Assembly (NCBI GenBank): GCA_964430605.1
Contig: CAYSGX010000002.1
Location: 1 to 38,159 of the forward strand
DNA: 38,159 nucleotides
DNA from: an uncultured Chitinophagaceae bacterium
Lineage (GTDB): Bacteria > Bacteroidota > Bacteroidia > Chitinophagales > CAIOSU01
Direction of reading: 5' to 3'
This document shows, piece by piece, positions 3,677 through 20,780 of this stretch; positions within the stretch are counted from its first letter, which is position 1; each line of letters opens with the position of its first letter. Under the pieces are notes generated by a model. That model worked only from the letters and a program-made list of their open reading frames with translations. It did no database searches and had not been told where the DNA came from. Made by a program: the position numbers and the translations under genes.

Positions 3677-3745
3677 GCAGCTCTTCTTTCAGTCGTTCGT
3701 TGGCTTTGTGTGGCTTGCAAATGTGTGTGCTTGTGTGTTGGCGTT
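3677..3745. repeat. TG-rich intergenic repeat, copy A (left border of island 1)
   Basis: Contains GTTGGCTTTGTGTGGCTTGCAAATGTG (3699-3725) followed by TGTGTGTTGGC (3732-3742), which abuts the R-M stop codon at 3744. Matches copy B. Confidence 0.8.
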
Positions 3746-6700
3746 AATTCAGATACTTTTTTAATATTTGCTCTTTCTGTTTTGGGATGTCAGCTAACTG
3801 TTTTTGCAATACAGCTATTTTTGTTTCAATCTTTTCTATTGCTGCAACTATTTTTTTTTGTTCTTCGATAGATGGTAAAGGGATTTTAAATTCTTCTAAT
3901 TGCAGTTTTGTAATTGCTTCTCTTGAAGTAGCACCGTCCCCAATTTCTAAAAGTTTCGTTTTATATTCTGAACTAACCAATATTGTCTGAACATATTTGG
4001 GTAATGCTTTTTCATTTGTCCGAATTATAGAAACGTGTTGATTTACTCTTGCAGGTAAATATTTATCTTCTACTATACAGCATCTTGCTATGGAAGCACC
4101 AGTAATATTGAAAAGAATGTCATTTTTCTCAACGGTGACATTGTCTAACTTTTTAGCTTGTTCATCACTAATAAAAGCAAGACCTTTTTCTATAAATTCA
4201 GAATCATAAATGTTTTGACTTCTTATTAAGCTAATCCCACTCGTTCGATAAGAACCCTTACCTCCCAAAGGCGTTGCCCCGCTGCCTATTTTGGTCGTAA
4301 TTTCTTCAAGTTTGGTTAAAGCACCTTTTGAAGTATTGATAGTTGTTCCAAAATTTTCTCTTAGTTTTTCAATTTCCTCAATCGCTTTTTGTTCTTGCTT
4401 TTCCAATGCTTCGATTTCAGCAACTATTTTTTGCTGAATGTTGATTGGTGGAAGTGGAATTTTAATATCCAATAAGTTGCCTCGATTAAGTCCACCTTGA
4501 GCTTGACCTGTAATATTTGCTTTTAATAATTGTTGACCTTTTTTTGAAAGCAACAAATTGAATAGAAACTTTTGATGAGATTTCTTATTAGTTCTTAGTA
4601 GAAAAACGTGTTCATTAATAATTGAACTTTCATAACCTAAATCGTTAGTTCTAAATAATGCAACCTTACCTGTCAACGCTCCATCTTTGCAAATAAGAAT
4701 ATCTAAATCATTTAAAATTCCTTGTTTTGAAGATTTGAAAAATTCAACAGGTACAAATTTTAGATTACTTTTACTAATATAAATCTTACCATTTAAGCCA
4801 ATGTGTTCACCTCCTAAACTTGGTATACCTTCTTGATATTCACTAACACCACCTTTGGGTCTATTTCCGCTTTCTAATACTTCTAAGATTGTAGAGAGTT
4901 TTGTTTGGTCGTATTTACTTTCGATTACTATTTTTTTTTTAGCCGAAAGCGATATGTTCTTTTCAAAATCTACACGGTCAAAAGTGAACATATCTACCAA
5001 GTTGCGGTAGCTTAGATTTTGATGTAAGATTTCTGGAATGCCTAAATCAAACTCACCTAAAAATGCTTTGTAAATATAGTAGCTTGCTTTTTCGGGGTTG
5101 GTAAAGCTATCCGCATCATACAATTGTGTGCACTCGTCTATACTTTTACTTCGTTGAATAGGATGTATGCCTTCGCTACCTCTACGGTTACTAAACTCAT
5201 ATCCTAAAAAGCGTTTTTCAGCATCTTTTTCTCCTGTTTTTACCAACACCAACTTTTGAGGGTATGCCAATATAAAATAAAGCAACTTGTCTTGTTCTAC
5301 TGCTAAGATATTCGTCCAATGTTCTTGTTCATTTTTGGCTTTAATCTTCTTGGTATATTCTTTATAAATTTCGTGTTGCTCAATAGCGGCATTGGGCTTC
5401 TGTTGCAACAACGTTTTGTAATCATCAAAAGAAATATTGTCCCAAACGTGGGCTACATATTTTTTGAGTGGTTTTTCAATGCCGTTTATGGTTACATCTT
5501 GTAGCGATACAAAACATTTTTTTATTGCTTCTGTTATATTGTAAGCATCCGCATTGTTTCTGCGTCTTAAAAATAATGTAACGGTATTTGTTCCCGTTGC
5601 CATAAAGGTATTTGAGCCTAATTCTGCAATACCTAAAATTTCAAAGTGCTTTAATAGAATTTCTCTTGTTTGAGTGTAAATGCCTGTATTGCTCAAAATA
5701 CTACTTGGCAAAATGATACCTGCTACACCACCATCTTTTAATAGCTGTTTAGTACGTTCAATAAACAAACATTCTATTTCAGAACTTTGGTCGGTTAGTC
5801 GGTTGTATAAATCAAAGCCCAACTTCGCTTTTTCTTCATCCATTAAACCCTTAAAAGCGGATACGGAATAAGGCGGATTTGAAATAATAATATCAAATTC
5901 TTTATTGTCTTGCGGATAGGTTTTATCGGTTTCTTTCAATAAATCTTTAAACTCTTTTGAAGTGCTAAAATCTCCCAAACCATCACCGTGAATTACTTTT
6001 GCCAAACCATCTCCGTGCAGATAGCAACTTACTTTGGCTGTCTTTACTAAACGATAATCTTTTTCAATACCATAAACGTAGGTTTCAGCCCAATCAAATT
6101 GGTCTTCTTTCCATTTTTTGATGGCTCTTTTGGTAGTAGGATTAAAAGAACTTTCATCCAAATTGTCAATGTAATTTTGAATAACTTCCATTGATTCGGT
6201 GATAAAATGCCCACTCCCCGCTGCATAATCAATTACAGTTGGTAACAAGTCATTTTTATTTCCCTGCTCAATTTTCTGTGCTGTTATTTCTTGAAATGGT
6301 AAACTTTTAATAATAAATCGAGCAATCGGAACTGGTGTGAAAAACTGTCCTGATTCTTGCTTTAATCCTGTAGTTAAAAGCAATTCAAAGAAATCACTCA
6401 AAAATTGCTGACGGTAATTGTAACGTATTTGATATACTTGAAGCAGCTCAACTACTTCTTTTACCACTTTGGCATTTTCTTCAAAAGAAGTATCATCATA
6501 CACTTCTTTTATTGCAAATTCATTATTTTTTTTAAGCCGAATTTCGGTTAAAATATCCTTGAATTTATCTCTGTACTGAATGTCAACGTGTAAAAATTGT
6601 TTATCAAATTCGCTGTCGCTAACGTCTGTAACTTTCTTTTCCAAAAGTTCGAGCATTCCTCTGTTATAAAGGTCTGTCAGTCTTTTTTGAAACGAAACGT

Positions 6701-7535
6701 GAGTATCTTCTCCTTCAAGCCATTGGAAATGCAATTGCTCGTCTGGATTTCTGTTTTCATCAACAATTTTGCAAAGGAAAAGTGTAAATATTTTGTTGAA
6801 AGCGTTCGGTTTATCAGAAACTACATTGTGTCTTAGTATTTCCAAAAAGCGATTAAAAATGAAACTACTGTCTTCTTGTTTTAAAACTTTTAAGTCGTTT
6901 TTTGTAAGTGCCTTACTTTGAAATTCATAAGGCTTTACCCAACTTTCAAAAATACCATTGGTTTTAGGTAGTTTATTCCAACGCTCGAAAAAGTCTTTTA
7001 CATTTCCTGCTTGTCGGTAATCATCTTCAATTTTTGTAATGACGTTTTTAAACTCAATGTTTTTTCCTTGAAGTTGCGAAGCGTAAAGCATAAGAATATC
7101 AGCATCCTTATCCTGTTGGAAGTAAGTAAAAAGCTGACCACCGTTTCGTTCTAAATTTTTAAATTCTTTGTCAAATTCTGCTCCCCAAGTCTTGCATTCA
7201 ATCATTAGGTAAGCCGAACCATTGTCACGAGTTACCAAAATATCTAATCGTCCGCTTGTGCCGTGTCCGGTTCGCCAAGTTTTTTCTAAAACAATATTTT
7301 GAGGTAAATAACCTTTTTCTAAAAGTCTGTCAACACATTCAAGAACAACCCAATTTTCTGCTTGTGAAAAATTTTGAGTGGTTTTGCTTTCGCCTTTTAT
7401 CTTCTTTCCAAAATCGAAAGTTGAGTTCTCAAAATCAATTTCAATGGCGTAGCCATTGTATTTTTTATGAAAAATACCTGAAGTATTTTCTTTAGGTGTA
7501 AATCCTAATGTTTGTATGAAGTTTTTGTAGTTCAT
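3744..7535 (-). CDS. Single-polypeptide restriction-modification-specificity enzyme (Type IIB/IIG architecture: PD-(D/E)XK nuclease + N6-adenine methyltransferase + two HsdS-like TRDs)
   Basis: 1263-aa ORF. N-terminal nuclease core: GRLDILV..YLMIECK (D98/E112/K114). Gamma-class N6A MTase motifs: GQFFTP, motif I VIDYAAGSGHF, and motif IV NPPY at nt 5868-5879. Two target-recognition domains follow (about nt 4461-4913 and 3891-4313), each ending in a conserved helix (IPLPPINIQQKIVAEIEALE / IPLPSIEEQKKIVAAIEKIE). Confidence 0.85.
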   Translation of the reverse strand: MNYKNFIQTLGFTPKENTSGIFHKKYNGYAIEIDFENSTFDFGKKIKGESKTTQNFSQAENWVVLECVDRLLEKGYLPQNIVLEKTWRTGHGTSGRLDILVTRDNGSAYLMIECKTWGAEFDKEFKNLERNGGQLFTYFQQDKDADILMLYASQLQGKNIEFKNVITKIEDDYRQAGNVKDFFERWNKLPKTNGIFESWVKPYEFQSKALTKNDLKVLKQEDSSFIFNRFLEILRHNVVSDKPNAFNKIFTLFLCKIVDENRNPDEQLHFQWLEGEDTHVSFQKRLTDLYNRGMLELLEKKVTDVSDSEFDKQFLHVDIQYRDKFKDILTEIRLKKNNEFAIKEVYDDTSFEENAKVVKEVVELLQVYQIRYNYRQQFLSDFFELLLTTGLKQESGQFFTPVPIARFIIKSLPFQEITAQKIEQGNKNDLLPTVIDYAAGSGHFITESMEVIQNYIDNLDESSFNPTTKRAIKKWKEDQFDWAETYVYGIEKDYRLVKTAKVSCYLHGDGLAKVIHGDGLGDFSTSKEFKDLLKETDKTYPQDNKEFDIIISNPPYSVSAFKGLMDEEKAKLGFDLYNRLTDQSSEIECLFIERTKQLLKDGGVAGIILPSSILSNTGIYTQTREILLKHFEILGIAELGSNTFMATGTNTVTLFLRRRNNADAYNITEAIKKCFVSLQDVTINGIEKPLKKYVAHVWDNISFDDYKTLLQQKPNAAIEQHEIYKEYTKKIKAKNEQEHWTNILAVEQDKLLYFILAYPQKLVLVKTGEKDAEKRFLGYEFSNRRGSEGIHPIQRSKSIDECTQLYDADSFTNPEKASYYIYKAFLGEFDLGIPEILHQNLSYRNLVDMFTFDRVDFEKNISLSAKKKIVIESKYDQTKLSTILEVLESGNRPKGGVSEYQEGIPSLGGEHIGLNGKIYISKSNLKFVPVEFFKSSKQGILNDLDILICKDGALTGKVALFRTNDLGYESSIINEHVFLLRTNKKSHQKFLFNLLLSKKGQQLLKANITGQAQGGLNRGNLLDIKIPLPPINIQQKIVAEIEALEKQEQKAIEEIEKLRENFGTTINTSKGALTKLEEITTKIGSGATPLGGKGSYRTSGISLIRSQNIYDSEFIEKGLAFISDEQAKKLDNVTVEKNDILFNITGASIARCCIVEDKYLPARVNQHVSIIRTNEKALPKYVQTILVSSEYKTKLLEIGDGATSREAITKLQLEEFKIPLPSIEEQKKIVAAIEKIETKIAVLQKQLADIPKQKEQILKKYLN

Positions 7536-9346: not shown

Positions 9347-10063
9347 GTGGCGAAAAAAGAAAATGTTGACGAAAAAATTATCGTTGCGATAGATGGTTAT
9401 TCTTCTTGCGGCAAAAGTACCTTAGCAAAAGACTTAGCGAAAAAGTTGCAATACGTATATATAGATTCGGGGGCTATGTACCGTGCAGTGGGCTTGTATT
9501 GCCTGCAACATAATATTGACATAAACGTTGAGGCAGATGTGGTTGCCGCTTTACCCAAAATAAAAATAAGTTTCAGGTATAACAGCGATACTAATACGAA
9601 CGAAACATACCTGAACAGTAAAAATATTGAGGCAGCTATCAGAAGTTTAGAAGTAGCGTCAATGGCAAGCACAGTAAGCAAATACAAAAAAGTGAGAGAA
9701 GCTATGGTAGCGCAGCAACAGCTTTTCGGAAAAGAAAAAGGCATTGTGATGGACGGAAGGGATATTGGCACGGTGGTATTTCCTGATGCTGAACTGAAAT
9801 TATTTATTACCGCCAGTATTGAAGTGCGCACCGAGAGAAGATTTAAAGAACTGGCACAAAAAGGCATTCTTACTACAAAAGAAAAAGTAGCCGAAAATTT
9901 AAAAGAGCGCGATGAAAATGATATTAACAGAGCAGAAAGCCCGTTAAGAAAAGCAGATGACGCTAAAGAAATTGACAACTCTTTTTTATCTACAACCGAG
10001 CAGTTAAATCTTGCCTGCTATTTTGTAAATGAAGTAATGAAAAAATATCATCAAGCTTCATAG
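9347..10063 (+). CDS. cmk: (d)CMP kinase (cytidylate kinase)
   Basis: GTG start. P-loop IAIDGYSSCGKST, plus YIDSGAMYRA and GIVMDGRDIGTVVFPDAELK. Confidence 0.93.
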   Translation: MAKKENVDEKIIVAIDGYSSCGKSTLAKDLAKKLQYVYIDSGAMYRAVGLYCLQHNIDINVEADVVAALPKIKISFRYNSDTNTNETYLNSKNIEAAIRSLEVASMASTVSKYKKVREAMVAQQQLFGKEKGIVMDGRDIGTVVFPDAELKLFITASIEVRTERRFKELAQKGILTTKEKVAENLKERDENDINRAESPLRKADDAKEIDNSFLSTTEQLNLACYFVNEVMKKYHQAS

Positions 10064-10215: not shown

Positions 10216-11241
10216 TTATTCATTTTGGTTCATCTGCGAACGAATGAGTGCAATTTCCTGTATCAATTCTTCTTCTGTCGGAATATATAGTTTGTATTTG
10301 GTCGCAAATAATTTTTGGTTGTCGTTAAGTATTGAAAAACGCACTTCCGCACGGTCTTTTTCTTCGCAAAGAATAATTCCGATTGTCGGGTTGTCGCCTT
10401 CGGTGCGTTTCAGTTCGTCATACATACGCACATACATATCCATTTGTCCAACGTCTTGGTGTGTCAATTTTCCTATTTTCAGGTCTATCAGCACAAAGCA
10501 TTTCAGAATATAGTTGTAAAACACCAAGTCAATGTAATAATGTGAAAGTTCTGTATTGATACGTTGTTGGCGGTTTACAAACGAAAATCCTTTGCCGAGT
10601 TCCAATAGGAATTTTTGCAAGTTGTCAATAATGGCTTGTTCTACTTGGCTTTCGCTGAATTTTTGATTTTCTTTTAATTCGTAAAAATCCAACACAAGCG
10701 GGTCTTTCAAAATAAAATCCTGTGGATTTAGGGAAAGTTGGTTTGAATTTTCGGTACTTAATTCATTTAAAGTTTCTTTGTGTGTTGAAATCAAGCGTTC
10801 GTAATAGTGTTTGTCCACTTGTTCGTCTAAAAACCTTGTACTCCAAACATTTTGAGCCGCTTCGTTCATATAAAGTTCTCTGGCTTTCGGGTTTTCAACA
10901 CGCAAAAGCGAACGGTAATGTGTCCAACTTAATTCTTTACGCAGTGCGTAAACATTTGGAAATTGCAGGTAAAATTTACGCATATTGGTAAGGTTCACAT
11001 AGGTAAAACCTTTGCCAAACTCCTTTTGTAAGCGTTCAGAAACAGATTTTAGCAAACTTTCGCCATATTTAGCGTATTGTTCGCCTCCTTGTTCTTCCAC
11101 AATTTTTTGCCCAATATGCCAATAGGTTTCTACCATAGCAAAATTAGCCGCTTGAAACACTTTTTGGCGGGCATTTAGTATCAGTTCTCTTGAAAACTGA
11201 TACAAATTATTGCTGTTTTCTATGTTTTGTTGTTCAGGCAT
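10216..11241 (-). CDS. DUF1016/YhcG-family PD-(D/E)XK nuclease-domain protein
   Basis: 341 aa. N-terminal DUF1016 pattern: YWHIGQKIVE, KYGESLLKSVSERL, SWTHYRSLLRV. C-terminal nuclease core: YYIDLVFYN..FVLIDLKIGK. Confidence 0.85.
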   Translation of the reverse strand: MPEQQNIENSNNLYQFSRELILNARQKVFQAANFAMVETYWHIGQKIVEEQGGEQYAKYGESLLKSVSERLQKEFGKGFTYVNLTNMRKFYLQFPNVYALRKELSWTHYRSLLRVENPKARELYMNEAAQNVWSTRFLDEQVDKHYYERLISTHKETLNELSTENSNQLSLNPQDFILKDPLVLDFYELKENQKFSESQVEQAIIDNLQKFLLELGKGFSFVNRQQRINTELSHYYIDLVFYNYILKCFVLIDLKIGKLTHQDVGQMDMYVRMYDELKRTEGDNPTIGIILCEEKDRAEVRFSILNDNQKLFATKYKLYIPTEEELIQEIALIRSQMNQNE

Positions 11242-11250
11242 TGTTTACAT

Positions 11251-12009
11251 CTAATAATTTTGTTTTATCAATGATTTCAATTCCTCAACAGACACCAGTT
11301 CCTTTCCCCGATGGATTATAGAATGGCAATTAGGACATACCGGAATCAAATCTTTTATCGGGTCAAGAACATATTCTTTGCCGATTTTTGATAATGGAAC
11401 AATATGATGAACATGAATGAAACCTTTTCCTATTTCTCCATAAAAGTTATAAAAATCGAAACCACAAGCATTACAAACCGCTCCATAGTGTTCAATACAT
11501 AACCTTCGTGCAAGCGGATTTCTTTCAAACTTATTTATGACAACCGATTTTACAGCACCTTCGTAAATGGGAGAATCTTCGCTAACATAAGATTGTATTT
11601 CATCATCAAGCGGATAATAAAAACTTTCATTTAATTGCCAAGAGATTTTAACCGGAGTGCTATCTATAAAATCTTTAATCTTAACCGTTCCTTCAAATGT
11701 AAAAGGTTCTTTATCGTTAGTTCTGGTAAAAAGGAAAATACTTTGATTAGGTTCGGGGTTTAGCATTTTTCTTATTGAAGGTTGATTTATGTTAGAATTT
11801 GTTTTGGCTTCCCATTTAAAAATTTCCCCGTCCCAAAAGTTATTATAATCATGTCCTGTCCTTCCCGGGATTCCGACATTTGAAAAGATATAAATATTTC
11901 CTTCGTATTCTCTGTATCCTGTATCCCAAGCTCCTTTTTTCCTTTCATCAGGAACTTTTAAAAGCTCGTAAATATCGTTTTTAGTGTATGTTTTATTTAC
12001 TTCAAACAT
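11251..12009 (-). CDS. HNH endonuclease with an N-terminal DUF3427-like (putative DNA/modification reader) domain; Type IV-restriction-like
   Basis: 252 aa. C-terminal His-Me finger: CNACGFDF..HVHHIVPLS..PVCPNCHSIIH. The N-terminal ~135 aa (IYIFSNVG..HDYNNFWDGEIFKWEA..SIFLFTR..PFTFEGTV..PVKISWQL) matches my memory of the DUF3427 pattern but needs an HMM test. Confidence 0.8.
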   Translation of the reverse strand: MFEVNKTYTKNDIYELLKVPDERKKGAWDTGYREYEGNIYIFSNVGIPGRTGHDYNNFWDGEIFKWEAKTNSNINQPSIRKMLNPEPNQSIFLFTRTNDKEPFTFEGTVKIKDFIDSTPVKISWQLNESFYYPLDDEIQSYVSEDSPIYEGAVKSVVINKFERNPLARRLCIEHYGAVCNACGFDFYNFYGEIGKGFIHVHHIVPLSKIGKEYVLDPIKDLIPVCPNCHSIIHRGKELVSVEELKSLIKQNY

Positions 12010-12010
12010 A

Positions 12011-13321
12011 TTAAGGATACATAATTGCTATTCCAAGCCTTGCGGTATGGGAAGATAGTTTTTGCAGAATATCAGCAAATAATTTATCCTTCGCTTTCAT
12101 TAAGATTTTATATTTAGAAGAATCTTTTAACTCACTTTCTTTAATCGTTTGAAATCTGTAAAAATCAAAAATTATCATTTGAGGTTTTTCAAACCCCTCA
12201 ATATTTACCGGATATAAAAAAGTGTAAAAATTTTCGGCTTTAAAAAGGCTTTTATCCCCTTTCAAAATAGGTTTATCATAATCCATTTGTATTCCTCCTA
12301 CAATTCTTGAAAACGATTGCTTTTTATTTAGAGCAAAATCACAAGGCGGAGTTATTTCTACACAAATTCTACGCTTCTTTAAGTTTTTAAAGTCATCGTG
12401 AGTGTCTATATTTATTTCATTATTTTTTTTATCCAGAATTTCTTTAATGTAAAGAGGTGAATTTTCATCAGCAATCTCATATATGTTTCCCGGAATTACG
12501 GAATCTTGTGATAAGTTTTGGAAATCTAACAGTAGTAATGAGTTAAGTTTTGAGAATACTTTTGTTTTTTCTTCAGCCGATTCATTGTATGTCAGATTAT
12601 TCGGTTGTGAGAATAAATTTTGAATGTTTTGATAGTTATTGGATGTTTCAAACTGTAAAGTATCCATTAATGATTTCACTAAGTCTTTTTGTAAATCATA
12701 ATTTGCGGTACTGCTTTGAGGTATTCCGGTATAGTTACAGGCTAAAGTATATAAGACGGATTCGAGATGTTTATTTTTTTTATCATTTGTATCAAACAAA
12801 TCATACAATGTTGATATGGTACAATCCGAACCTTTCTTAACGGCTTTGTTCCACTCAATGAAAAATGAAGATGAAACATCTTTTGCTAATTTTTCTTCTA
12901 ATTCCTCTAAAACCCCTTCATAATTCCCTTTTGTTTTATATTTGTTCTTTTCCAAAGAAACAACAAATAACGGTAAAGTAAACGAGTTTGTTTTTAAGTA
13001 TATCTTATCGCAAAATTCTCCAAAATGATTAGAATGTTTAGTCCATAATACTACTCCATACGTACCAAAGTCTTTATCTATAATTGTTTTAAAATATTTT
13101 CTTATCAGTGCGATATTTTCGGTACTACTTCTTTCATCTTGCAGATATAAATCCAAAAAAATTAATTTCCTGTTGTTAAAAGAAGTACTTTTTGTTTCCA
13201 ATTCATTTGGATGATAATATTTAGTCCAAATATCTTTTTCTTCCAAATATTTTATCAAATCGTTTACTTCTTCCTTATCATCATCGATAACCAAAGCACT
13301 TGTTATAAATCCTTGTAACAT
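12011..13321 (-). CDS. Receiver (REC) domain protein with an unassigned ~300-aa C-terminal domain (candidate effector)
   Basis: Track ORF 12011-13417, but its first 32 codons overlap the upstream gene. The ATG at 13321 lies 4 nt after the upstream stop. REC signature: ALVIDDD, LIFLDLYL (candidate phospho-acceptor D57, nt 13151-13153), VVLWTKH (T94), VVSLEK (K125). I recognise no motif in residues ~135-437. Confidence 0.65.
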   Translation of the reverse strand: MLQGFITSALVIDDDKEEVNDLIKYLEEKDIWTKYYHPNELETKSTSFNNRKLIFLDLYLQDERSSTENIALIRKYFKTIIDKDFGTYGVVLWTKHSNHFGEFCDKIYLKTNSFTLPLFVVSLEKNKYKTKGNYEGVLEELEEKLAKDVSSSFFIEWNKAVKKGSDCTISTLYDLFDTNDKKNKHLESVLYTLACNYTGIPQSSTANYDLQKDLVKSLMDTLQFETSNNYQNIQNLFSQPNNLTYNESAEEKTKVFSKLNSLLLLDFQNLSQDSVIPGNIYEIADENSPLYIKEILDKKNNEINIDTHDDFKNLKKRRICVEITPPCDFALNKKQSFSRIVGGIQMDYDKPILKGDKSLFKAENFYTFLYPVNIEGFEKPQMIIFDFYRFQTIKESELKDSSKYKILMKAKDKLFADILQKLSSHTARLGIAIMYP

Positions 13322-13325
13322 ATTT

Positions 13326-15428
13326 TTATTTTTTTTCTTTCGGAAAACAGAGAGCAACAATTGCTTTATTGACTTTATTTTCTTTAACAGGTTTTGGAAA
13401 ATCAATGTCGTTTTCATCTGAAATTAATATTAGCTTACCTTTCATGGCGGTCATCATCTCATTGGCTACATGAAGTCCTAACCCCGAACCGATATTGTGC
13501 GGTTTACCTGTTAAGAAAGGCTTTACGGCAACATCAAAAGGCAAATTAAATCCCGGACCGTTATCGGAAACAATAATCGAGTTATAGCCTTGTATCTGGT
13601 CGGTGATGTATACCGAAATAAACCTGCCGGATTTTCTTGCGTAACTTAACCAATATATAGCATTATCCAAAAGATTTGTTATTACGGATATTGATTCCGC
13701 TTCTGCTAAATAAGCTTCCAACTTGTTCTCTTTCCAGTTTGAAATAACATTAATGGAATGGTCTATAAATCTGAATTCATAATTATCTAAAGCAGTGGAA
13801 ACAATTTTGCTTAAAGGATTGAGCTTAATATCGGATTTTTTAAGCATAGCGGAATAACCTCGTATTATTTTTTCCAATGACAGAGATATTCGAACTGCTT
13901 TTTCTTTTTCGTTTCGTTCAATACAGCCTGTCAATTCAGCTATAAGCTTATCTAATTCGTGTATAACGATACCTAAATTTAATCCGGCATTTGCGCTTTT
14001 TATTAAAACTTCTTTTACCTCTTTATATTGGTCATTAATCCTGTATAAATATTTCAATACTTCATCTTTAACTTCTTTTTCCTTAACTTTTTCTTCTACA
14101 ATATTCATCACCTCATTCAAATCAGATAAAACAGGTTCTACGGCTTTGTGTTTTTTATACAAAGAAGTTAATAAGGATTTATCTATATTTCTTTCTCTAA
14201 CGATTAATGATAATACGTAATCAATGGCTTCAACAAAGTCAAAATAAGATTCGTTTTCTATAAATCCTTCTCTGTTTGTTTTTTCTACCAATCCTTTACT
14301 TAAAGCTCTATCTATTTTAACCGCACCAATAATGATATTGTTGCTGACATTTCCACCTACCCGATGTACTCTTTTCAAATCAATGCCCAACCAATCATTA
14401 TCCCTTTCGCCATAATTATATACTCTTACACCGTCTCTGTAAACCCTTATACCTCCGTTTTCTTTCAAATATGTTTTCAGAGCTGTTTTTTCCGTATTTA
14501 CATAGCTGAATATTTGAGCATCCGTATCGAAAATAATTACATCAAACTCAATTGTTCCGATATTACTTTGATTCAAGTCAATATCTTCGAATTTTCGGGT
14601 ATCGTAATTCCATTTTTTAATTATTTTGTCTTCTTCAATTAAATCGTTTAGGTTTACTTCTCTGCCCTTATCTATTTTTTGTAAACTGCTCCAAGGTTTA
14701 AATTCATATTTAAACTCTATTATTTCACCGTCTTTCATTTTGCAATGTCCGAAGTAAAGAGCATTGTTTTTAATATCTTCAAAATCAGGTAAGCCTTCAA
14801 AAACATTTGTATTGCTTGTCGCTAATACATTAAATGAATCGTTATTTTCGGAAAAAGGACTGTTTAGTGAGGTAATGTTTCTGTGAACTTCCCTTAATTG
14901 TCTTCTATCCCAATCCGTTTTTAAATCTTCAATAATTATTTTTGTACCTGTTGCGTTTAGAAAAACAGTCGGTTTACTTTTTTCATTTACATCTATAGTA
15001 AAATCATCAATGTTTTTTGCAGATTTAAGTTGATTCCAATCTATCTTTAATTCAACTTCATTATCATTTTTTGTTTTGGAAACTAATGTAATTTTATTCC
15101 CCAATTTGTGTATTCCCAATCTCCCTATTCCTTTTTCTCCTAAAGGTATTCTTCCGCAAACATTAGGTTCAAGATTCTTTTTTTTATTATCAGTTCCTAC
15201 CACTAACCAAACCGTTTCAATAATGTTTTTATTCATTCCGAAACCGTCATCTTCAATAGTTAATTTAGTTAACTTATTACCGCTAAATATAAAATCAACG
15301 ATACAATGAGTTGCACACGCATCATAAGAATTTTTAATCAATTCAAATAAGGCGATACTCTCATTTTTAATTAAATCTTCTCCCAGATGAGATAAAACAC
15401 GAGGCGTTATAGAAAACTTTAATTTCAT
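13326..15428 (-). CDS. Dual GHKL protein: N-terminal MutL/MORC/Hsp90-type ATPase fused to a histidine-kinase-like module (H-box + HATPase_c)
   Basis: 700 aa. N-terminal Bergerat motifs: FELIKNSYDA (E29/N33/D36), IEDDGFGM, GEKGIGRLG. Candidate H-box: GIVIHELDKLIAEL (H490, nt 13959-13961). C-terminal kinase-type boxes: ITNLLDNAIYW (N box), VSDNGPGF (G1), GSGLGLHV (G2). The ATG overlaps the dcm stop (ATGA, 15425-15428). Confidence 0.75.
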   Translation of the reverse strand: MKLKFSITPRVLSHLGEDLIKNESIALFELIKNSYDACATHCIVDFIFSGNKLTKLTIEDDGFGMNKNIIETVWLVVGTDNKKKNLEPNVCGRIPLGEKGIGRLGIHKLGNKITLVSKTKNDNEVELKIDWNQLKSAKNIDDFTIDVNEKSKPTVFLNATGTKIIIEDLKTDWDRRQLREVHRNITSLNSPFSENNDSFNVLATSNTNVFEGLPDFEDIKNNALYFGHCKMKDGEIIEFKYEFKPWSSLQKIDKGREVNLNDLIEEDKIIKKWNYDTRKFEDIDLNQSNIGTIEFDVIIFDTDAQIFSYVNTEKTALKTYLKENGGIRVYRDGVRVYNYGERDNDWLGIDLKRVHRVGGNVSNNIIIGAVKIDRALSKGLVEKTNREGFIENESYFDFVEAIDYVLSLIVRERNIDKSLLTSLYKKHKAVEPVLSDLNEVMNIVEEKVKEKEVKDEVLKYLYRINDQYKEVKEVLIKSANAGLNLGIVIHELDKLIAELTGCIERNEKEKAVRISLSLEKIIRGYSAMLKKSDIKLNPLSKIVSTALDNYEFRFIDHSINVISNWKENKLEAYLAEAESISVITNLLDNAIYWLSYARKSGRFISVYITDQIQGYNSIIVSDNGPGFNLPFDVAVKPFLTGKPHNIGSGLGLHVANEMMTAMKGKLILISDENDIDFPKPVKENKVNKAIVALCFPKEKK

Positions 15429-16483
15429 TTCCCCCTGTTTTGTATTATTGCTTTTCCAATAGCTTGGGCATATTTTGGCGGAACGGCATTTCCTATCATT
15501 CTTGCGGTATTTGAAATGCTTGTTGTTTTAAAAATGTAATTTTTAGGAAATGATTGTAATACTGCTCCTTCTCGTAAGGAAATGGCTCTGTTTTCTTCCG
15601 GATGTGCAAATCGTCCGTTTGAAATACTGAAAAACTTTGTTGTAATTGTGGGAGAAGGTTTGTCCCACCACATTCTGCCGTATGTATCTTTAAAATTGTC
15701 TTTATCGTTTTTATGACAATTGGGTGCTAATTCGGAATTGTCGGCATAAGCTAATCTTGTTCCACCATTTTTTTTCGTTACGGCAAGCCTTTTTAAATTG
15801 ATTTCTTGTAATCCCGCCACTGTATGCAGAAAAGTAGAATTGTCTTTATACCCCGCTTTTACTTTTGGGAAACCGTTGTGTTCTCCTAAAACATCTCTAA
15901 CGGTCAGCTTTTCACCTTTAGCTTTTACAGGCTCTATTTCTGTTTTGGTTACTCTGTTGGCAATAAGCGTAAATCTTCTTCTATGTTGTGGAACACCATA
16001 ATTACTTACTTCGTGAACATCAAAATGCACTTTATAGTTATTATCCTTTAGCCACTCGATAAAATCTTCCAATCCGCTTTCAGTTTTTCTTCTCAAAACG
16101 CCCGGTACATTTTCAACAATCACATAACCCGGTACAAAATATTCTACAAAACGCCTAAACTCTTTCAATAAATCTTTTGATTTTTCCGATTTATTTTTGT
16201 CCGTGTTAATGATGCTCCAAAATTGACACGGACTGCAACCGATAAGCACCAAATTTTTATCGTTTTTCTTTAATGAAAGTTGTTTTTCTAACTCTGTTTC
16301 CTTTAATTCAAAAACATCAGCGTGAATAAATTTTGCTCCTTTTATGTTTGATATGTACGTCTCTTCGCAGGTTTTATCAAAATCTATTCCCGCAAGAATT
16401 TCTATTCCTGCTTGCTGCATTCCGTAGCTCATTCCGCCTCCGGAACAGAAAAAATCAACTGCTTTTATGTTGTTTTTTTGCAT
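15425..16483 (-). CDS. dcm: DNA (cytosine-5)-methyltransferase
   Basis: 352 aa with FCSGGGMS (motif I), GCSPCQFWS (motif IV, PCQ), IVENVPG (motif VI), QHRRRF (motif VIII) and GNAVPP (motif X). Confidence 0.93.
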   Translation of the reverse strand: MQKNNIKAVDFFCSGGGMSYGMQQAGIEILAGIDFDKTCEETYISNIKGAKFIHADVFELKETELEKQLSLKKNDKNLVLIGCSPCQFWSIINTDKNKSEKSKDLLKEFRRFVEYFVPGYVIVENVPGVLRRKTESGLEDFIEWLKDNNYKVHFDVHEVSNYGVPQHRRRFTLIANRVTKTEIEPVKAKGEKLTVRDVLGEHNGFPKVKAGYKDNSTFLHTVAGLQEINLKRLAVTKKNGGTRLAYADNSELAPNCHKNDKDNFKDTYGRMWWDKPSPTITTKFFSISNGRFAHPEENRAISLREGAVLQSFPKNYIFKTTSISNTARMIGNAVPPKYAQAIGKAIIQNRGK

Positions 16484-16886
16484 TAATTACTTCTTCAAAA
16501 GTATCGGCACAAAGTAATGAATTTTTCTCAATATCTCGACCCCAAAACCGCAAAATAATCCAACCTTCCTTTGTCAGTTGTTCGTTCACTTCCTTGTCTC
16601 GCTCTATGTTTCGCTGAATTTTCTTGTGCCAAAATTCAATGTTTGATTTGTGTTCGTGTTTTTTTGATTCCCAATTTTTACCGTGCCAAAATTCACTATC
16701 GCAAAAAACAGCGATTTTATATTTTTTGAAAACGAAATCAGGTTTACCGAAAACCGTTTTGTCATTTTTCTGATAACGATAGCCTCTTTTCCATAATTCT
16801 TTACCCAACAAAACTTCAATTTTTGAACCTTTGTTTTTTACGGCTTGCATATTTTTACGTCTTTGTTCCTTAGTCAATTTATCCAT
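16455..16886 (-). CDS. vsr: Very-short-patch repair endonuclease (T:G mismatch)
   Basis: 143 aa. RRKNMQAVKNKGSKIE..LWKRGYRY..GKPDFVFKKYKIAVFCDSEFWHG..WILRFW matches the Vsr family. The 3' end overlaps the dcm start by 29 nt. Confidence 0.9.
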   Translation of the reverse strand: MDKLTKEQRRKNMQAVKNKGSKIEVLLGKELWKRGYRYQKNDKTVFGKPDFVFKKYKIAVFCDSEFWHGKNWESKKHEHKSNIEFWHKKIQRNIERDKEVNEQLTKEGWIILRFWGRDIEKNSLLCADTFEEVINAKKQHKSS

Positions 16887-16963
16887 TTTATGTGCTACAT
16901 TTTAAAAATATAGTGAAAATATTTGCACATTTATCAAATGTTTATATATATTTGTATTCTGAA
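16887..16963. promoter_or_regulatory. 77-bp divergent control region between the vsr-led and GHKL-led operons
   Basis: This is the only non-coding DNA between two back-to-back operons. On the + strand, TTTG (16922-16925) and TATATTTG (16947-16954) fit the Bacteroidetes -33 TTTG / -7 TAnnTTTG pattern. The palindrome ACATTTatcAAATGT (16927-16941) lies between them. Confidence 0.5.
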
Positions 16964-17215
16964 ATGAAAAACAAAGTTAGCAAAATGTCTTCTGTTAAAC
17001 GAGATAGATTCGAAAAAGTGGCTTCAAACCGTGTCCAAAAAATTATAGATTTTTTGGGGTTGCTCGGTAATTGTGCCAATAAGAATAATTACGAATACAC
17101 GGAAAAAGACGTGGAATTAATGTTTAAAGAAATTAACCGTGCTTTAAAAGAAACGAAAACGCTTTATGATAAAGAATTGAACAAAACGGGAAAAGCGGGT
17201 TTTAAATTTGAATAA
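16964..17215 (+). CDS. Small hypothetical protein, first gene of the plus-strand cassette
   Basis: The track ORF starts at GTG 16892 inside the promoter region. ATG 16964 (MKNKVSKMSSVKRDRFEKVASNRVQKIIDFLGLLGNCANKNNYEYTEKDV..) or ATG 16985 is more plausible. The stop lies 2 nt before the next ATG. Confidence 0.55.
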   Translation: MKNKVSKMSSVKRDRFEKVASNRVQKIIDFLGLLGNCANKNNYEYTEKDVELMFKEINRALKETKTLYDKELNKTGKAGFKFE

Positions 17216-17217
17216 AA

Positions 17218-19209
17218 ATGGAAGTAAAAAATATGGAGAAAAATTGTACTTGGCATTTTAAAGAAGAAGGCGGACGTGATGTTGGTCCAAATGACCCGAT
17301 TGATGAAAAGTTTAAAGGTCAACCTTATTATTCAATTGTTCGGGAAGCAATACAAAATTCATTAGATGCAGTGATGAATGACCAACAACCTGTAAAGGTT
17401 GTTTTCAGTTTTTTTGAAATTGACAGAAAAAATTATCCTAACTTTTTTCAGTTAGAAAATCATATTACCCAAAGTCAGCAATACTATTCCGACAACGATA
17501 ATGCAAAACGATTATTCGGAAATATGTTGGAATACCTTAACGGAAAAGAACCCAATAAGAAAAAACTAAAAATTTCGTGTATGCGTATTTCCGACTATAA
17601 TACGGTCGGAATGAATTATGATGCATAAAATACAAACTCGCCATTTTATGCTTTTTTGCGTGCAGGTGGTGTTAGTGCCAAAAGTCAAGGAGCTGGCGGT
17701 TCGTTTGGTTTCGGAAAAGGTGCTTACTATACACTTTCTCCGATTAAAACAATTGTGGTTTCAACTCGTGATAATGATAACAATGTATTTTTTGAAGGCT
17801 CAACTATTTTGACGACTCATAAAAATGCAACCAATCAGAAATTAACGGCTTACGGATATTATGATAACAACAACGGAGAACCGACACAAAACAACGATGA
17901 TATTCCCGAAGTTTTTCAGAGAACAAAAATCGGAACAGATGTGAACATTATTGGTTTGTGGAAAGAAGATGATAGGAAAAAGCTGATGATTAAATCTGTT
18001 CTCAATAACTTTTGGTTAGCGATTTATCATAAAAAACTCGTTGTTCAAGTTGATGATGTTACGATAAGTGAAAACAACATTGAACAAATAATTGACCAAT
18101 ATTTTGAAGGCGAATTTGAAAGCGGAAAAGCAGATGAAATTGAATCGTGGAATCCGAAAGCGTATTTCAAAGCAGTAAAATATGCAGGAAACCATGACCA
18201 ATATAAAGTGTTTGAAGATGAATTGAATACTATCGGGCAAGTAAAGCTATATGTTTATTTAGAAAAAGGTTTACCGAACCGTACAGCATATTTCAGAAAA
18301 CCTAAAATGGTTGTATTCAAACGAACAAACGGAAAAGTAAAAGGATATGTTGCGGTGTTTGTTTGTGAAAATGAGAAAGGAAACGAAATGCTCCGTCTAA
18401 TGGAAAATCCTGCACACAACGAATGGAAAGAAGAAAACTATCCAAAGAATGAAGGAGATATTGATACAAATGCTCGAAGAGGACGTATAGAAATAAGTGA
18501 TTTCATAAATAGAACGCTTGAATCTTTGGCAAAAATCAAAACAGGCAACAAGATTGCATTTGTAGGTTTGGAAGAATACTTGTCCATTCCCGAAGATTTG
18601 TTGGAAAAAGACGAAGAATACGATTTTGAAGGACAGAGTACAAGTAACGTTTCAGGACAATCAAGCAATGAAAATACCGAAGATGAAACAGGAATGCTCA
18701 CAAGCGATAAAACAGAACCTGTAACCATAAAACCAACCGTCAAAACACAACAGTCGGAAGCAAAAGGAGAAACCAATATTGAAGTAACGGAAGAAGGAGA
18801 AGAAACCATAACCGTAGGTGGAGAAAACGAAAGTGAAGGTGGAGATGCTCCGCCAAGTGATTTGGGCGATAATGTAAATACTGGAAATCGAACAGATGAA
18901 AGTCCGAATAAAAGCAGAACGGTTATAAAAGTACGTTTAAGAGTTGCGGCACAAACAGAAAACGAAGTTTTATTTCATCATTTGATTGTAAATTCCGATA
19001 ACGAAATTGAAAATGCAGAATTGGAATTGCTTGTAAGTGGCGATAATGATAGAGATGACAGCATTTCAATTATATCAAGCGACAAAGGAACTGTTTCAAA
19101 AAATACAATCAAAAATCTAAAACTTGACATAGGCGTAACCAAAATAAAAATACGCTTTGCAGACAACATTAAACACTCGGTAAAACTCAAAGCGTATGAA
19201 ATTCAATGA
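17218..19209 (+). pseudogene. MutL/MORC/Hsp90-type GHKL ATPase (663 codons) interrupted by one in-frame TAA at 17626-17628
   Basis: Track ORFs 17218-17628 and 17656-19209 are in the same frame (offset 438 nt). Reading through gives ..ISDYNTVGMNYDA*NTNSPFYAFLRAGGVSAKSQGAGGSFGFGKGAYY. Motif I REAIQNSLDA and motif II DYNTVGM lie upstream of the stop; the glycine-rich lid GGSFGFGKG lies downstream. Confidence 0.75.
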
Positions 19210-20050
19210 TGTTACTTTTCCGCATCCTGTGCTTGGTGTTGGCGATGCAATTAGCGGAAAAACAGGATTTACAAAAGAACCCGAAATAAGTAAAACACAA
19301 GATAGTTACAAGGTTACAATAGAATGTAATCTTGATAATGACGATTTGAAAAAGTTTCTGCAAGAAAACAAAGTGGAGTTTTTGTGTGACGTAACTTGTA
19401 CAAATACTGTTTACAGAGAAAACATTGTAAGCAATAGTGAAAAAATTGAATTTGATATTCATAGAAAACAAGTCAAAGGAAAAGTAGAATTTACTTGTGT
19501 ACTTGTGGCAAAAGAAAATTTGCAGAACTATTCAAATTCAAAAGCACATTCAGATTACAACGGATTTACTTTTGACTTGGACAAAGGCGATGTGTTGGCG
19601 TTCTTCGGAGAATTTACATTTGATGCCGATATAAAATACGAAAAACTAAAAGCCGTTTCTTCATTTATGGAAGTGGTAGAAAACGAAGCAATAGAATACA
19701 CAAACATTGATTTGAAAAAACCGAAAATTGAAGTTCAACTTCCGCCAAATGATTACAACGCATACAAAAGCGATGCAATTTCACACGAAATTAAATTTGC
19801 TCCAATGTTTCATTCTTCGCTTGTATTAAATGCGTTGTTAATTGCTCTGTATAATTTTGAAGAACACAAAGAGTATTTGTGGGCAAAAGCAATAGAATAC
19901 CGATTAAAAAACGACAAGGAACTAAACAGTATAAATTTTCAAGAAAAAGAAAACATTCCGGAAATAGCACAACGCTTATTGGGAAATCCGTTTAGCCGTT
20001 TGTTAAACGGATTGAATGTTATTGTTGAATCATTAGAAGAAGAAAATTAA
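19196..20050 (+). CDS. Hypothetical protein (284 aa), no family recognised
   Basis: ATG 19196 overlaps the GHKL gene end by 14 nt. The ORF is long and clean, beginning MKFNDVTFPHPVLGVGDAISGK. Confidence 0.7.
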   Translation: MKFNDVTFPHPVLGVGDAISGKTGFTKEPEISKTQDSYKVTIECNLDNDDLKKFLQENKVEFLCDVTCTNTVYRENIVSNSEKIEFDIHRKQVKGKVEFTCVLVAKENLQNYSNSKAHSDYNGFTFDLDKGDVLAFFGEFTFDADIKYEKLKAVSSFMEVVENEAIEYTNIDLKKPKIEVQLPPNDYNAYKSDAISHEIKFAPMFHSSLVLNALLIALYNFEEHKEYLWAKAIEYRLKNDKELNSINFQEKENIPEIAQRLLGNPFSRLLNGLNVIVESLEEEN

Positions 20051-20051
20051 A

Positions 20052-20780
20052 ATGGCAAAGCAAATTATATTCAAAGATAAATACGTTCAAAAATTAAAGA
20101 ACGAATTAAATATTGAGTTCTACAAGGCAAATAAATTTGTTTACGATAAGAAACAAATTTTGATGTTGCCTAATATTGAGAAAACGGAAAATTTGTTAGA
20201 GAGATTAGATGTAAATGATGATTGCAAAACGGCAATCCAAATTTACGAAGCCTTTCAAAAATTAGAACCGATACAAGCCTCAGATGAGCGTTTGTGGGTT
20301 TATCTTTCTCACGTTGATTTGTACTCGTATATGATTAAACGTTGGAATACCGGACATAGCGGAACGGTGAAAGATGAAAAAGCAAAAGAATATATTTTAG
20401 AACATTGGTTTTTGATTTCGTCAGCACAAAGCAGTTTGTTACGCCACGCTTTGGCCAGACTGTGGTGGTCGGTTTATTTGTCGGTTGATGAAACAAAAAA
20501 TGACAAGTATGAACTAACTAAAATTTTGTTTCGTCAGTTAGATTTTCCTACAAGAACGTTAGGAACGTACAAACTCGGTCGCCACAAAGAAGCTGTAATC
20601 GGAATTTTAGAGTTTATCAAAGAGAACGAAAATTTATTCAAAAATAAGTTCGAAGATAAAGCTCGTTTTATTACAAAACATTTGAATGTTGTCGGTGGTG
20701 TAAAACCTATTTCATATTACAACCGTATTTTTTTTAAGTTTGAATTGAAAAAAATGTCAAACGAAATTTCCAATATTTAG
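20052..20780 (+). CDS. Hypothetical protein (242 aa), no family confidently recognised
   Basis: Starts 1 nt after the upstream stop. It has W/R-rich conserved-looking blocks: DERLWVYLSHVDLYSYMIKRWN and LLRHALARLWWSVYLSVDE. Confidence 0.7.
   Translation: MAKQIIFKDKYVQKLKNELNIEFYKANKFVYDKKQILMLPNIEKTENLLERLDVNDDCKTAIQIYEAFQKLEPIQASDERLWVYLSHVDLYSYMIKRWNTGHSGTVKDEKAKEYILEHWFLISSAQSSLLRHALARLWWSVYLSVDETKNDKYELTKILFRQLDFPTRTLGTYKLGRHKEAVIGILEFIKENENLFKNKFEDKARFITKHLNVVGGVKPISYYNRIFFKFELKKMSNEISNI

Follow-up and report, generated by a model that had tools for sequence, protein, structure and literature searches.

Gene pairs that encode a soluble kinase-like protein and an adjacent receiver-like protein were described computationally by Bellieny-Rabelo, Pretorius & Moleleki (2021, Genome Biol Evol, PMC8011034). 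The kinase-like proteins of these pairs combine HATPase_c_3, a new H-box domain (HEF_HK, PF19191) and HATPase_c, and the adjacent receiver-like protein (Response_reg_2, PF19192) contains no other known domain. In that study the kinase–receiver linkage was 91.6% over 644 regions, an association with C5 methylases, Vsr and HNH nucleases was reported (Bacteroidetes included), the pair was derived from the paraMORC ATPases (Iyer et al. 2008, PMC2292703), and a regulatory role was proposed, the Pectobacterium genes being induced in planta. Here we analyse a pair of this kind located at positions 12011–15428 of a 38,159-nucleotide stretch of DNA (the window) from an uncultured Chitinophagaceae bacterium (GenBank assembly GCA_964430605.1, contig CAYSGX010000002.1, positions 1 to 38,159 of the forward strand). 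Positions 12011–15428 hold exactly the two middle genes of a six-gene run on the minus strand: a kinase-like protein of 700 amino acids (15428..13326) and a receiver-like protein of 436 amino acids (13321..12011).

Judged by domain order and conserved residues, the window pair is a member of the HEF_HK/Response_reg_2 family, with an architecture identical to ‘group 1’ of PMC8011034. The features shared with the published pairs are the kinase domain order, the adjacent receiver, the soluble nature of the proteins, the linkage to a C5 methylase, Vsr and sometimes an HNH nuclease, the conserved His-Glu pair, and the Asp-Asp/Asp/Thr/Lys residues; the difference lies in the third H-box residue, which is Leu/Ile/Val in the window, not Phe. 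The preliminary description of this locus had regarded a GHKL-on-GHKL sensor kinase followed by a receiver-linked effector as a new architecture; since the same architecture is presented in PMC8011034 (PF19191 and PF19192), this claim is unsupported, and the pair is a new member of a family known computationally since 2021. What is new here is a model-based structural account of the C-terminal 300 residues of the receiver-like protein (a predicted helical bundle and beta-barrel), of which PMC8011034 gave none.

Concerning the family models themselves, neither PF19191 nor PF19192 matches the window proteins or 77 homologs, and the proteins of a related Rhizobium plasmid locus are not matched either. 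PF19191 is a short and narrow model; it gives a weak match, below the cutoff (E 0.0023), to an Acinetobacter kinase homolog, and the matched stretch aligns with the H-box of the window protein (IVIHELDKL in the window vs DIIAHELARI, BLASTP E 1e-35). PF19192 never matched any protein scanned, and there is no positive control for that model. The UniProt name of a homolog with 63% identity is ‘Response receiver domain-containing protein’.

Three other groups of systems resemble the pair. The paraMORC GHKL ATPases have been placed in restriction-modification (R-M) systems with nucleases (Iyer, Abhiman & Aravind 2008, PMC2292703), and VcSduA, a fusion of a paraMORC3 GHKL domain and a Shedu nuclease, has been validated by experiment as an anti-phage protein whose ATPase is required (PMC12137116), which makes it a parallel for the sensor half of the window pair. 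The window protein shares with paraMORC and MORC proteins the intact motifs of an N-terminal GHKL ATPase followed by a conserved middle domain, the occurrence in Dcm/Vsr/HNH operons and the lateral mobility; it differs in that its C-terminus is a histidine-kinase core, not a nuclease or Toll/interleukin-1 receptor (TIR) domain, and in that the output is located on a separate receiver protein. The BbrUII/HgiDII enzymes (NCBIfam NF050001) also have a C5 methylase partner, and their first ~184 residues are homologous to the kinase-like protein (E 3.9e-25); however, only the head is matched, over residues 4–186, with 88.5 bits against a cutoff of 550 and just positions 2–184 of the 659 model positions aligned. 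The HgiDII system also carries Vsr. Detocs is the third: it reportedly consists of the kinase DtcA with a tetratricopeptide repeat (TPR) sensor, the buffer receiver DtcB, and the receiver-effector DtcC, mostly of the purine nucleoside phosphorylase (PNP) type. The shared outline is a cytoplasmic kinase, His-to-Asp transfer, a receiver fused to a non-transcriptional effector, and a defence setting; the differences are the sensor (TPR there, a GHKL clamp in the window) and the methylase and Vsr that accompany the window pair. The PADLOC Detocs model has no match in the window, no PNP-type effector was matched in the output module by Pfam or Foldseek, and no stand-alone receiver open reading frame of at least 60 amino acids was seen in the same-strand run, the genes of which are accounted for by Vsr, Dcm, kinase, receiver, HNH and YhcG. 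The pair thus resembles Detocs in logic but is no member, as had been noted before.

The kinase-like protein and its receiver domain

The conservation of the kinase-like protein was examined in an alignment of 30 homologs, down to 33% identity, which includes Verrucomicrobia, Planctomycetota and one archaeal bin. The two Bergerat (GHKL) folds of different types named in the preliminary description are both found by Pfam: HATPase_c_3 at residues 25–143 (E 6.8e-19) and HATPase_c at residues 581–672 (E 1.4e-11); the motifs quoted there for each fold are present and invariant in the alignment. The N-terminal head (residues 1–185; 14874..15428, minus strand) is a MORC/MutL-type GHKL ATPase of the paraMORC type, with the invariant residues E29/N33/D36, D60/G62/G64 and G97-E98-K99-G100-x-G102 (DxGxG, GEKGIGR). 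In a PDB profile search the N-terminus matches the heads of MutL, PMS2, MORC3 and Hsp90, and a PADLOC type II restriction endonuclease (REase) model also matches the first 184 residues.

The head is followed by a middle domain (residues 186–440; 14109..14873, minus strand), which contains the motifs NGGIRVYRDGVRVYNYGERDNDWLGID and EKTNREGF and is presumed to be a transducer or clamp. Residues 120–480 had earlier been treated as a linker, a view that does not hold, as residues 186–440 are the best-conserved part of the whole protein; the invariant residues are R331, D332, R335, E341, D345, W346, E382, K383, R386 and E387. The domain has no Pfam or PDB sequence match and, by analogy with the paraMORC literature (PMC2292703), is presumed to be an S5-type transducer domain.

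Residues 441–560 (13749..14108, minus strand) form a helical region which contains the H-box VIHELDKLI. H490 (codon CAC, 13961..13959) is the same in all aligned homologs and E491 in nearly all, and the distance from H490 to N585 of the N box is 95 residues, in agreement with the spacing of about 95 given previously. In the PDB profile search, HK853 is matched at 4e-11 over residues 509–669, that is, the second helix and the ATP domain, and LvrB from residue 471. A profile of the H-box region only, when compared with PDB, retrieves designed coiled coils and a non-significant match to helix 2 of HK853; no solved kinase is significant. Pfam HisKA has no match above threshold on the kinase-like protein. 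Based on position, the invariant His-Glu pair and the second-helix homology, the helices around H490 are presumed to be a dimerisation and histidine phosphotransfer (DHp) hairpin. The C-terminal part (residues 561–700 and stop; 13326..13748, minus strand) is a histidine-kinase-type catalytic ATP-binding domain: N585/D588/N589, D622/G624 and G647/G649/G651 (the N, G1 and G2 boxes) are invariant, and in PDB it is best matched by true histidine kinases, down to 4e-11. Between Bacteroidota and Haemophilus the identity of the kinase is 69%.

The gene of the receiver-like protein begins with an ATG at 13321, and the spacer between this ATG and the TAA stop of the kinase gene is 4 nt (ATTT). The 436-residue start is favoured over a longer open reading frame of 468 amino acids: M1 of ‘MLQGF’ is 96% conserved, and the homologs do not use the longer start. 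The full-length protein and its halves have no match in Pfam, NCBIfam or PADLOC, even at E up to 10, and no recurrent family was found by Pfam on the 77 homologs and 10 distant relatives; Response_reg stays below threshold on the receiver-like proteins, with one of the 77 homologs at 0.0038. The receiver (REC) domain occupies residues 1–135 (12917..13321, minus strand; D57 codon 13151–13153). The residue pattern that the preliminary description had pointed out 4 nt downstream of the kinase gene is largely retained across homologs: D13, D57 and K125 do not vary, D14 is kept in at least 90% (77–220 homologs), and position 94 is mostly Thr, with at least 80% in the closer homologs and at least 60% in the set of 220 sequences. 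The AlphaFold2 model, based on a 77-sequence alignment, has the (beta-alpha)5 order, a predicted local distance difference test (pLDDT) score of 91.4 and a predicted template modelling (pTM) score of 0.83. In Foldseek, nearly all of the top 50 PDB matches are receiver domains (PorX, DctD, PmrA, TrrA and others), many at probability 1.0. The conserved residues, the model and the Foldseek matches together confirm the REC fold. H490 and D57, the two residues for which a conservation check had been suggested, are both invariant among the homologs, and by these alignments the conserved features of kinase and receiver are far beyond chance and kept across phyla.

The output module of the receiver-like protein

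The remaining 300 residues, which had been noted as lacking any recognisable motif and which have no Pfam, NCBIfam or PADLOC match, are predicted to form two structural units. The first (residues 136–268; 12518..12916, minus strand) is a helical bundle of about five helices, based on the secondary structure of the models. No other part of the pair varies as much, the identity falling to 26% where the kinase is 85–90% identical, and the bundle has no structural or sequence match. The second (residues 269–436; 12014..12517, minus strand) is modelled as a beta-barrel with a long C-terminal helix and is the candidate effector. Its motifs are PGNIY (277–281), E-x-TPPCDF (322–329), R339, G343, D386, D417, Q420-K421 and R428, and the conserved set comprises P277, G278, Y281, E322, P325, C327, D328, R339, G343, Y366, D386, D417 and R428.

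The C-terminal part was modelled separately, because Foldseek with the full-length protein gave receiver matches only. The AlphaFold domain-only model of the barrel has a pLDDT of 87.9. A structure search of this domain had been proposed in the preliminary description; its outcome is that the top 8 Foldseek matches are all Mycobacterium tuberculosis MazF9 (MazF-mt1), with E-values from 3.5e-3 to 0.12, probabilities of 1.0–0.82 and template modelling (TM) scores by target of 0.51–0.59, a likeness that found no support from profiles. Nothing credible beyond MazF9 is found in the top 50, which contain no other MazF, Kid or CcdB entry, and a Foldseek search of the C-terminal model against viral structures gave nothing meaningful. 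The profile of the C-terminal domain has no match in a PDB sequence search at E up to 10, hhalign of the barrel against MazF profiles of 5 and 47 sequences (validated against PDB) gives probabilities below 1%, and hmmsearch --max returned nothing for MazF homology of the output domain. MazF membership by sequence was rejected on the negative hhalign and hmmsearch --max results.

In our reading, the strand and helix order of the barrel maps one-to-one on MazF, and PGNIY resembles the first MazF strand. Compared with MazF/PemK/Kid and the CcdB fold, the shared traits are the order of barrel and C-terminal helix and the likeness of PGNIY to (R/K)G(D/E)(I/V)(Y/W); the differences are a variable insertion of ~35 residues and a residue set of its own (E322/C327/D328/R339). 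By topology mapping, a Gly stands at the position of the MazF Thr. There is also no antitoxin gene, and control would be exerted by the fused receiver domain. A MazF/CcdB-like fold of the barrel is a lead only, which we regard as possible but less likely than not.

Concerning other functions, no helix-turn-helix (HTH), winged-helix or other regulator domain is found in the output module by sequence or fold searches, and Pfam, the PDB sequence search and Foldseek likewise reveal no nuclease fold or motif in this part of the protein. The preliminary description had expected an output other than a standard DNA-binding domain, and this is supported. A profile of residues 140–436 retrieves 675 cluster representatives among 1.84 billion proteins, and in nearly all of the 150 representatives listed the output domain is placed after an N-terminal region of ~140–200 residues.

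Gene linkage, divergence and the surrounding defence island

Related loci were collected in a scan of one genome per species, which yielded 53 loci. In 39 of the 40 loci with enough upstream DNA, the kinase gene immediately precedes the receiver gene. The lone exception (L043) is an orphan open reading frame of 166 amino acids (L043:9992-10492) in a complete Bacteroidales chromosome; it consists of the beta-barrel part only, with the TPPCDF motif intact. This reading frame lies next to a tRNA-like stretch and is probably what is left of a lost island rather than a freely acting toxin. Where enough flanking DNA is available (32 loci), a Dcm homolog is present in 26 and a Vsr homolog in 21. The usual gene order is Dcm–kinase–receiver–Vsr, or Vsr–Dcm–kinase–receiver as in the window, and these four genes make up the conserved core. 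No further conserved gene was found around this core in the related loci, and the other neighbours are almost all singletons: an HNH gene lies 3' of the receiver gene in just one of the 53 loci (L005), so that the HNH gene is accessory and outside the conserved core, and a YhcG gene adjoins the pair in none of the others.

Classical type II enzymes are found beside the pair in several loci. HpaII lies directly upstream of the kinase in one (L007:427-1500, 9e-145), MvaI/BcnI enzymes occur in two (L053:7021-7848, between Dcm and kinase, and L003:4709-6019; 4e-44 and 5e-47), and EcoRII-C is present on a Rhizobium plasmid (L054:10483-11700, 8e-70). Because such enzymes adjoin the pair, it may be an add-on to a complete R-M system. 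McrB-like, AbiV and AIPR genes are located near the pair in some loci. Two loci contain the pair without a nearby methylase, the neighbour being dnaE in L009 and a ThiF-family gene in L022.

The two proteins differ in their rate of change. The identity of the receiver protein can drop to 26–44% where the kinase is 72–90% identical to that of the window (L011, L023), the DHp region being 90% identical in L023, and in L018 a Dcm with 81% identity occurs with a receiver protein of 28–42%. As the kinase is conserved and the receiver protein is not, with the helical bundle changing fastest, partner swapping or fast evolution of the output is suggested. The receiver protein does not seem to be a specificity subunit, as no co-variation with the methylase was seen. 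Among more distant relatives the kinase is retained and the partner changes: one Acinetobacter partner has 637 amino acids and a different C-terminus. On a Bacteroides finegoldii plasmid (L108:4995-10097) a kinase-like protein of 774 amino acids is encoded with a receiver-only protein of 209 amino acids, a separate HNH nuclease of 193 amino acids and an N6 methylase; from this operon it would seem that the receiver can act on a nuclease with a gene of its own. Where the sensor kinase is kept and the outputs are exchanged, as these comparisons indicate, the pattern is that of defence systems, not of housekeeping regulators.

Kinase homologs number 3195. The kinase-like and receiver-like proteins of the window fall in unnamed singleton clusters, and their closest relatives (Bacteroidales, Dysgonomonas, Kaistella) have 74–84% identity. 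On 43 Campylobacter plasmids of ~50 kb, a ‘sensor histidine kinase’ matches the first 413 residues only, with 30% identity; it is a paraMORC-like relative with the GHKL head and the middle domain and without the kinase core. A blastn search of the pair against Escherichia coli genomes gave no match.

In the window, the six genes of the minus-strand run lie end to end: vsr, the C5 cytosine methylase gene, the 700-residue and 436-residue proteins, a 252-residue HNH protein and a YhcG-type protein. The first gene encodes Vsr, the very-short-patch T:G mismatch endonuclease (16455..16886; Pfam Vsr 4.8e-29, NCBIfam TIGR00632 3.7e-44), and overlaps dcm by 29 nt. The Dcm-type C5 cytosine DNA methyltransferase (15425..16483; Pfam DNA_methylase 4.3e-53) is joined to the kinase gene by an ATGA overlap, in which the TGA stop of the methylase shares bases with the kinase ATG. 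The HNH gene (11251..12009) starts 1 nt past the stop of the receiver gene and encodes a McrA-like nuclease with a DUF3427-like N-terminal domain (Pfam HNH 2.8e-7, DUF3427 1.7e-7; PADLOC type IV methyl-directed REase 4.6e-9; E. coli McrA 6ghc 3.5e-8). The closest relative of its HNH domain is E. coli McrA, a 5-methylcytosine-specific restriction enzyme; such a methyl-directed nuclease is an odd companion for a C5 methylase within one operon, unless their specificities differ. The last gene of the run (10216..11241) encodes a YhcG/DUF1016 protein of the PD-(D/E)xK nuclease family (Pfam YhcG_C 4.8e-55; PADLOC PDC-S02 8e-132). A promoter and terminator scan of the operon gave sites no commoner than in shuffles, Bacteroidota promoters being outside the coverage of the scan.

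Beyond the run, a Type IIG restriction-methylase of 1263 amino acids with a fused specificity domain is encoded at 3744–7535 (minus strand; PADLOC 6e-243), and a cytidylate kinase gene (9347–10063) interrupts the island. On the plus strand, the PADLOC candidate defence system PDC-M33 (16892–20780) comprises three genes: A (17218–19209; PADLOC 5e-101), a GHKL-like ATPase with the motifs REAIQNSLDA and GGSFGFGKG; B (19196–20050; 3.5e-58); and C (20052–20780; 7e-36, Pfam DUF6339). Gene A is broken by a single in-frame TAA (17626–17628) and is for this reason either a pseudogene or a sequencing error. With the Type IIG R-M enzyme, PDC-S02, the McrA-like HNH protein, the Dcm–kinase–receiver–Vsr module and PDC-M33, the window is a defence island, and the defence context that the preliminary description had assigned to the pair is borne out.

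Relay mechanism, rival explanations and significance

The reading that we favour, with moderate confidence, is a cytoplasmic His-to-Asp relay which switches a non-transcriptional effector in an R-M-linked defence module. It starts from what is observed (the folds of the domains, the conservation of every catalytic residue, the linkage of the genes and an output with no DNA-binding domain); from these we infer the signal, the direction (sign) of control, and the activity and chemistry of the effector. The 700-residue protein would be a soluble dimer, with the paraMORC-type GHKL ATPase and the middle domain as the sensor, an ATP-gated clamp reading a DNA or nucleotide state linked to the methylase of the operon. 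The C-terminal kinase core would receive the signal, and its HATPase_c domain would phosphorylate H490; the phosphoryl group would then pass from H490 to D57 of the receiver domain of the 436-residue protein. Phosphorylation may alter the packing of the receiver against its own helical-bundle-plus-beta-barrel module, which would be an enzymatic or toxic effector and not a transcription factor, possibly a toxin of the MazF/CcdB fold with a Cys-Asp-centred site. His-to-Asp chemistry is favoured because H490, the N/G1/G2 boxes and D13/D14/D57/K125 show little or no variation down to 20–35% identity. A bolder version is an immune phosphorelay in which the paraMORC-kinase detects foreign or wrongly methylated DNA, or a failure of methylase or restriction, and unleashes a so far unrecognised toxin family with a MazF/CcdB-like barrel and a Cys-Asp site, the outputs being exchangeable (HNH and others); taken as a whole, we consider this version unlikely.

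A number of points weigh against the relay and its toxin. In sequence, the H-box helix does not significantly match the DHp of any solved kinase, and Pfam HisKA, HEF_HK and Response_reg are all below threshold on the window proteins. The MazF likeness concerns one protein among the many solved MazF/Kid/CcdB structures, at a modest E-value and TM-score; the barrel has no conserved residues that correspond to the catalytic Arg and Thr of MazF, nor a conserved Arg before strand 2, and since the profile comparisons were all negative, MazF is kept as a fold-level lead only. The link to methylation is not obligatory, given the classical enzymes beside the pair and the methylase-free loci L009 and L022. 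No experimental study of the pair was found in literature searches.

These points leave room for three other explanations. The pair could be the restriction half of an ATP-dependent R-M system, in which the kinase-like protein is a paraMORC motor or clamp as in HgiDII/BbrUII, the receiver-like protein is the cleaving or specificity subunit, unmethylated DNA is cut directly and the His and Asp residues only tune the activity. The match of the first 184 residues to the BbrUII/HgiDII and PADLOC type II REase models, the lack of another nuclease candidate among the conserved core genes (Dcm, kinase, receiver, Vsr) and the occurrence of paraMORCs in R-M systems with nucleases (Iyer et al. 2008, PMC2292703) are consistent with direct cutting. 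However, the C-terminal part of the receiver protein shows no nuclease fold or motif in Pfam, PDB sequence or Foldseek searches, neither protein co-varies with the methylase, the methylase-free pairs (L009, L022) would be self-toxic for a true restriction enzyme, and other pairs adjoin complete classical systems (HpaII, MvaI/BcnI, EcoRII-type); direct restriction is therefore improbable in our view. An ordinary two-component regulator of the transcription of the neighbouring methylase and restriction genes, with the C-terminal domain as a novel DNA-binding output, would be in line with the regulation proposed by the authors of PMC8011034 and with the induction of the Pectobacterium genes in planta, and binding of DNA by an unrecognised fold is conceivable. 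Against it stand the lack of an HTH, winged-helix or other regulator domain by sequence or fold, the swapping of the output among relatives (including the receiver-only protein with HNH), which is typical of defence effectors and not of regulators, and the horizontal movement of a pair whose kinase is very highly conserved across phyla; we consider such a regulator quite unlikely.

It is also conceivable that no phosphotransfer occurs: the C-terminal GHKL domain might serve as a further ATPase or as a Ser/Thr kinase of the anti-sigma type, with the receiver as a structural or metal-binding relic. The subthreshold scores of HisKA, HEF_HK and Response_reg and the lack of a significant match of the H-box helix to solved kinases would fit this, and in one source a homolog bears the label ‘anti-sigma regulatory factor (Ser/Thr protein kinase)’. 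The joint invariance of H490 and D13/D14/D57/K125 (T94 as majority residue) over deep divergence would, however, be hard to explain, and in PDB the C-terminal domain is most similar to genuine histidine kinases, a similarity that extends to the helix preceding the ATP domain; a pair free of phosphotransfer is thus highly improbable.

The His-to-Asp relay would concern a family that is widespread (3195 kinase homologs, 675 output-domain representatives), highly mobile and located in defence islands. The candidate key residues are now explicit: E29, H490 and N585 in the kinase-like protein, and D57, E322, C327, D328 and R339 in the receiver-like protein. If the relay works as proposed, it would show how GHKL/MORC-type ATPases of R-M systems transmit their signal, and two-component immune signalling would then include, besides Detocs, a second type with a new effector domain. 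If the immune phosphorelay were true in its bolder form, the pair would be an abortive-infection arm wired to 5-methylcytosine restriction-modification.

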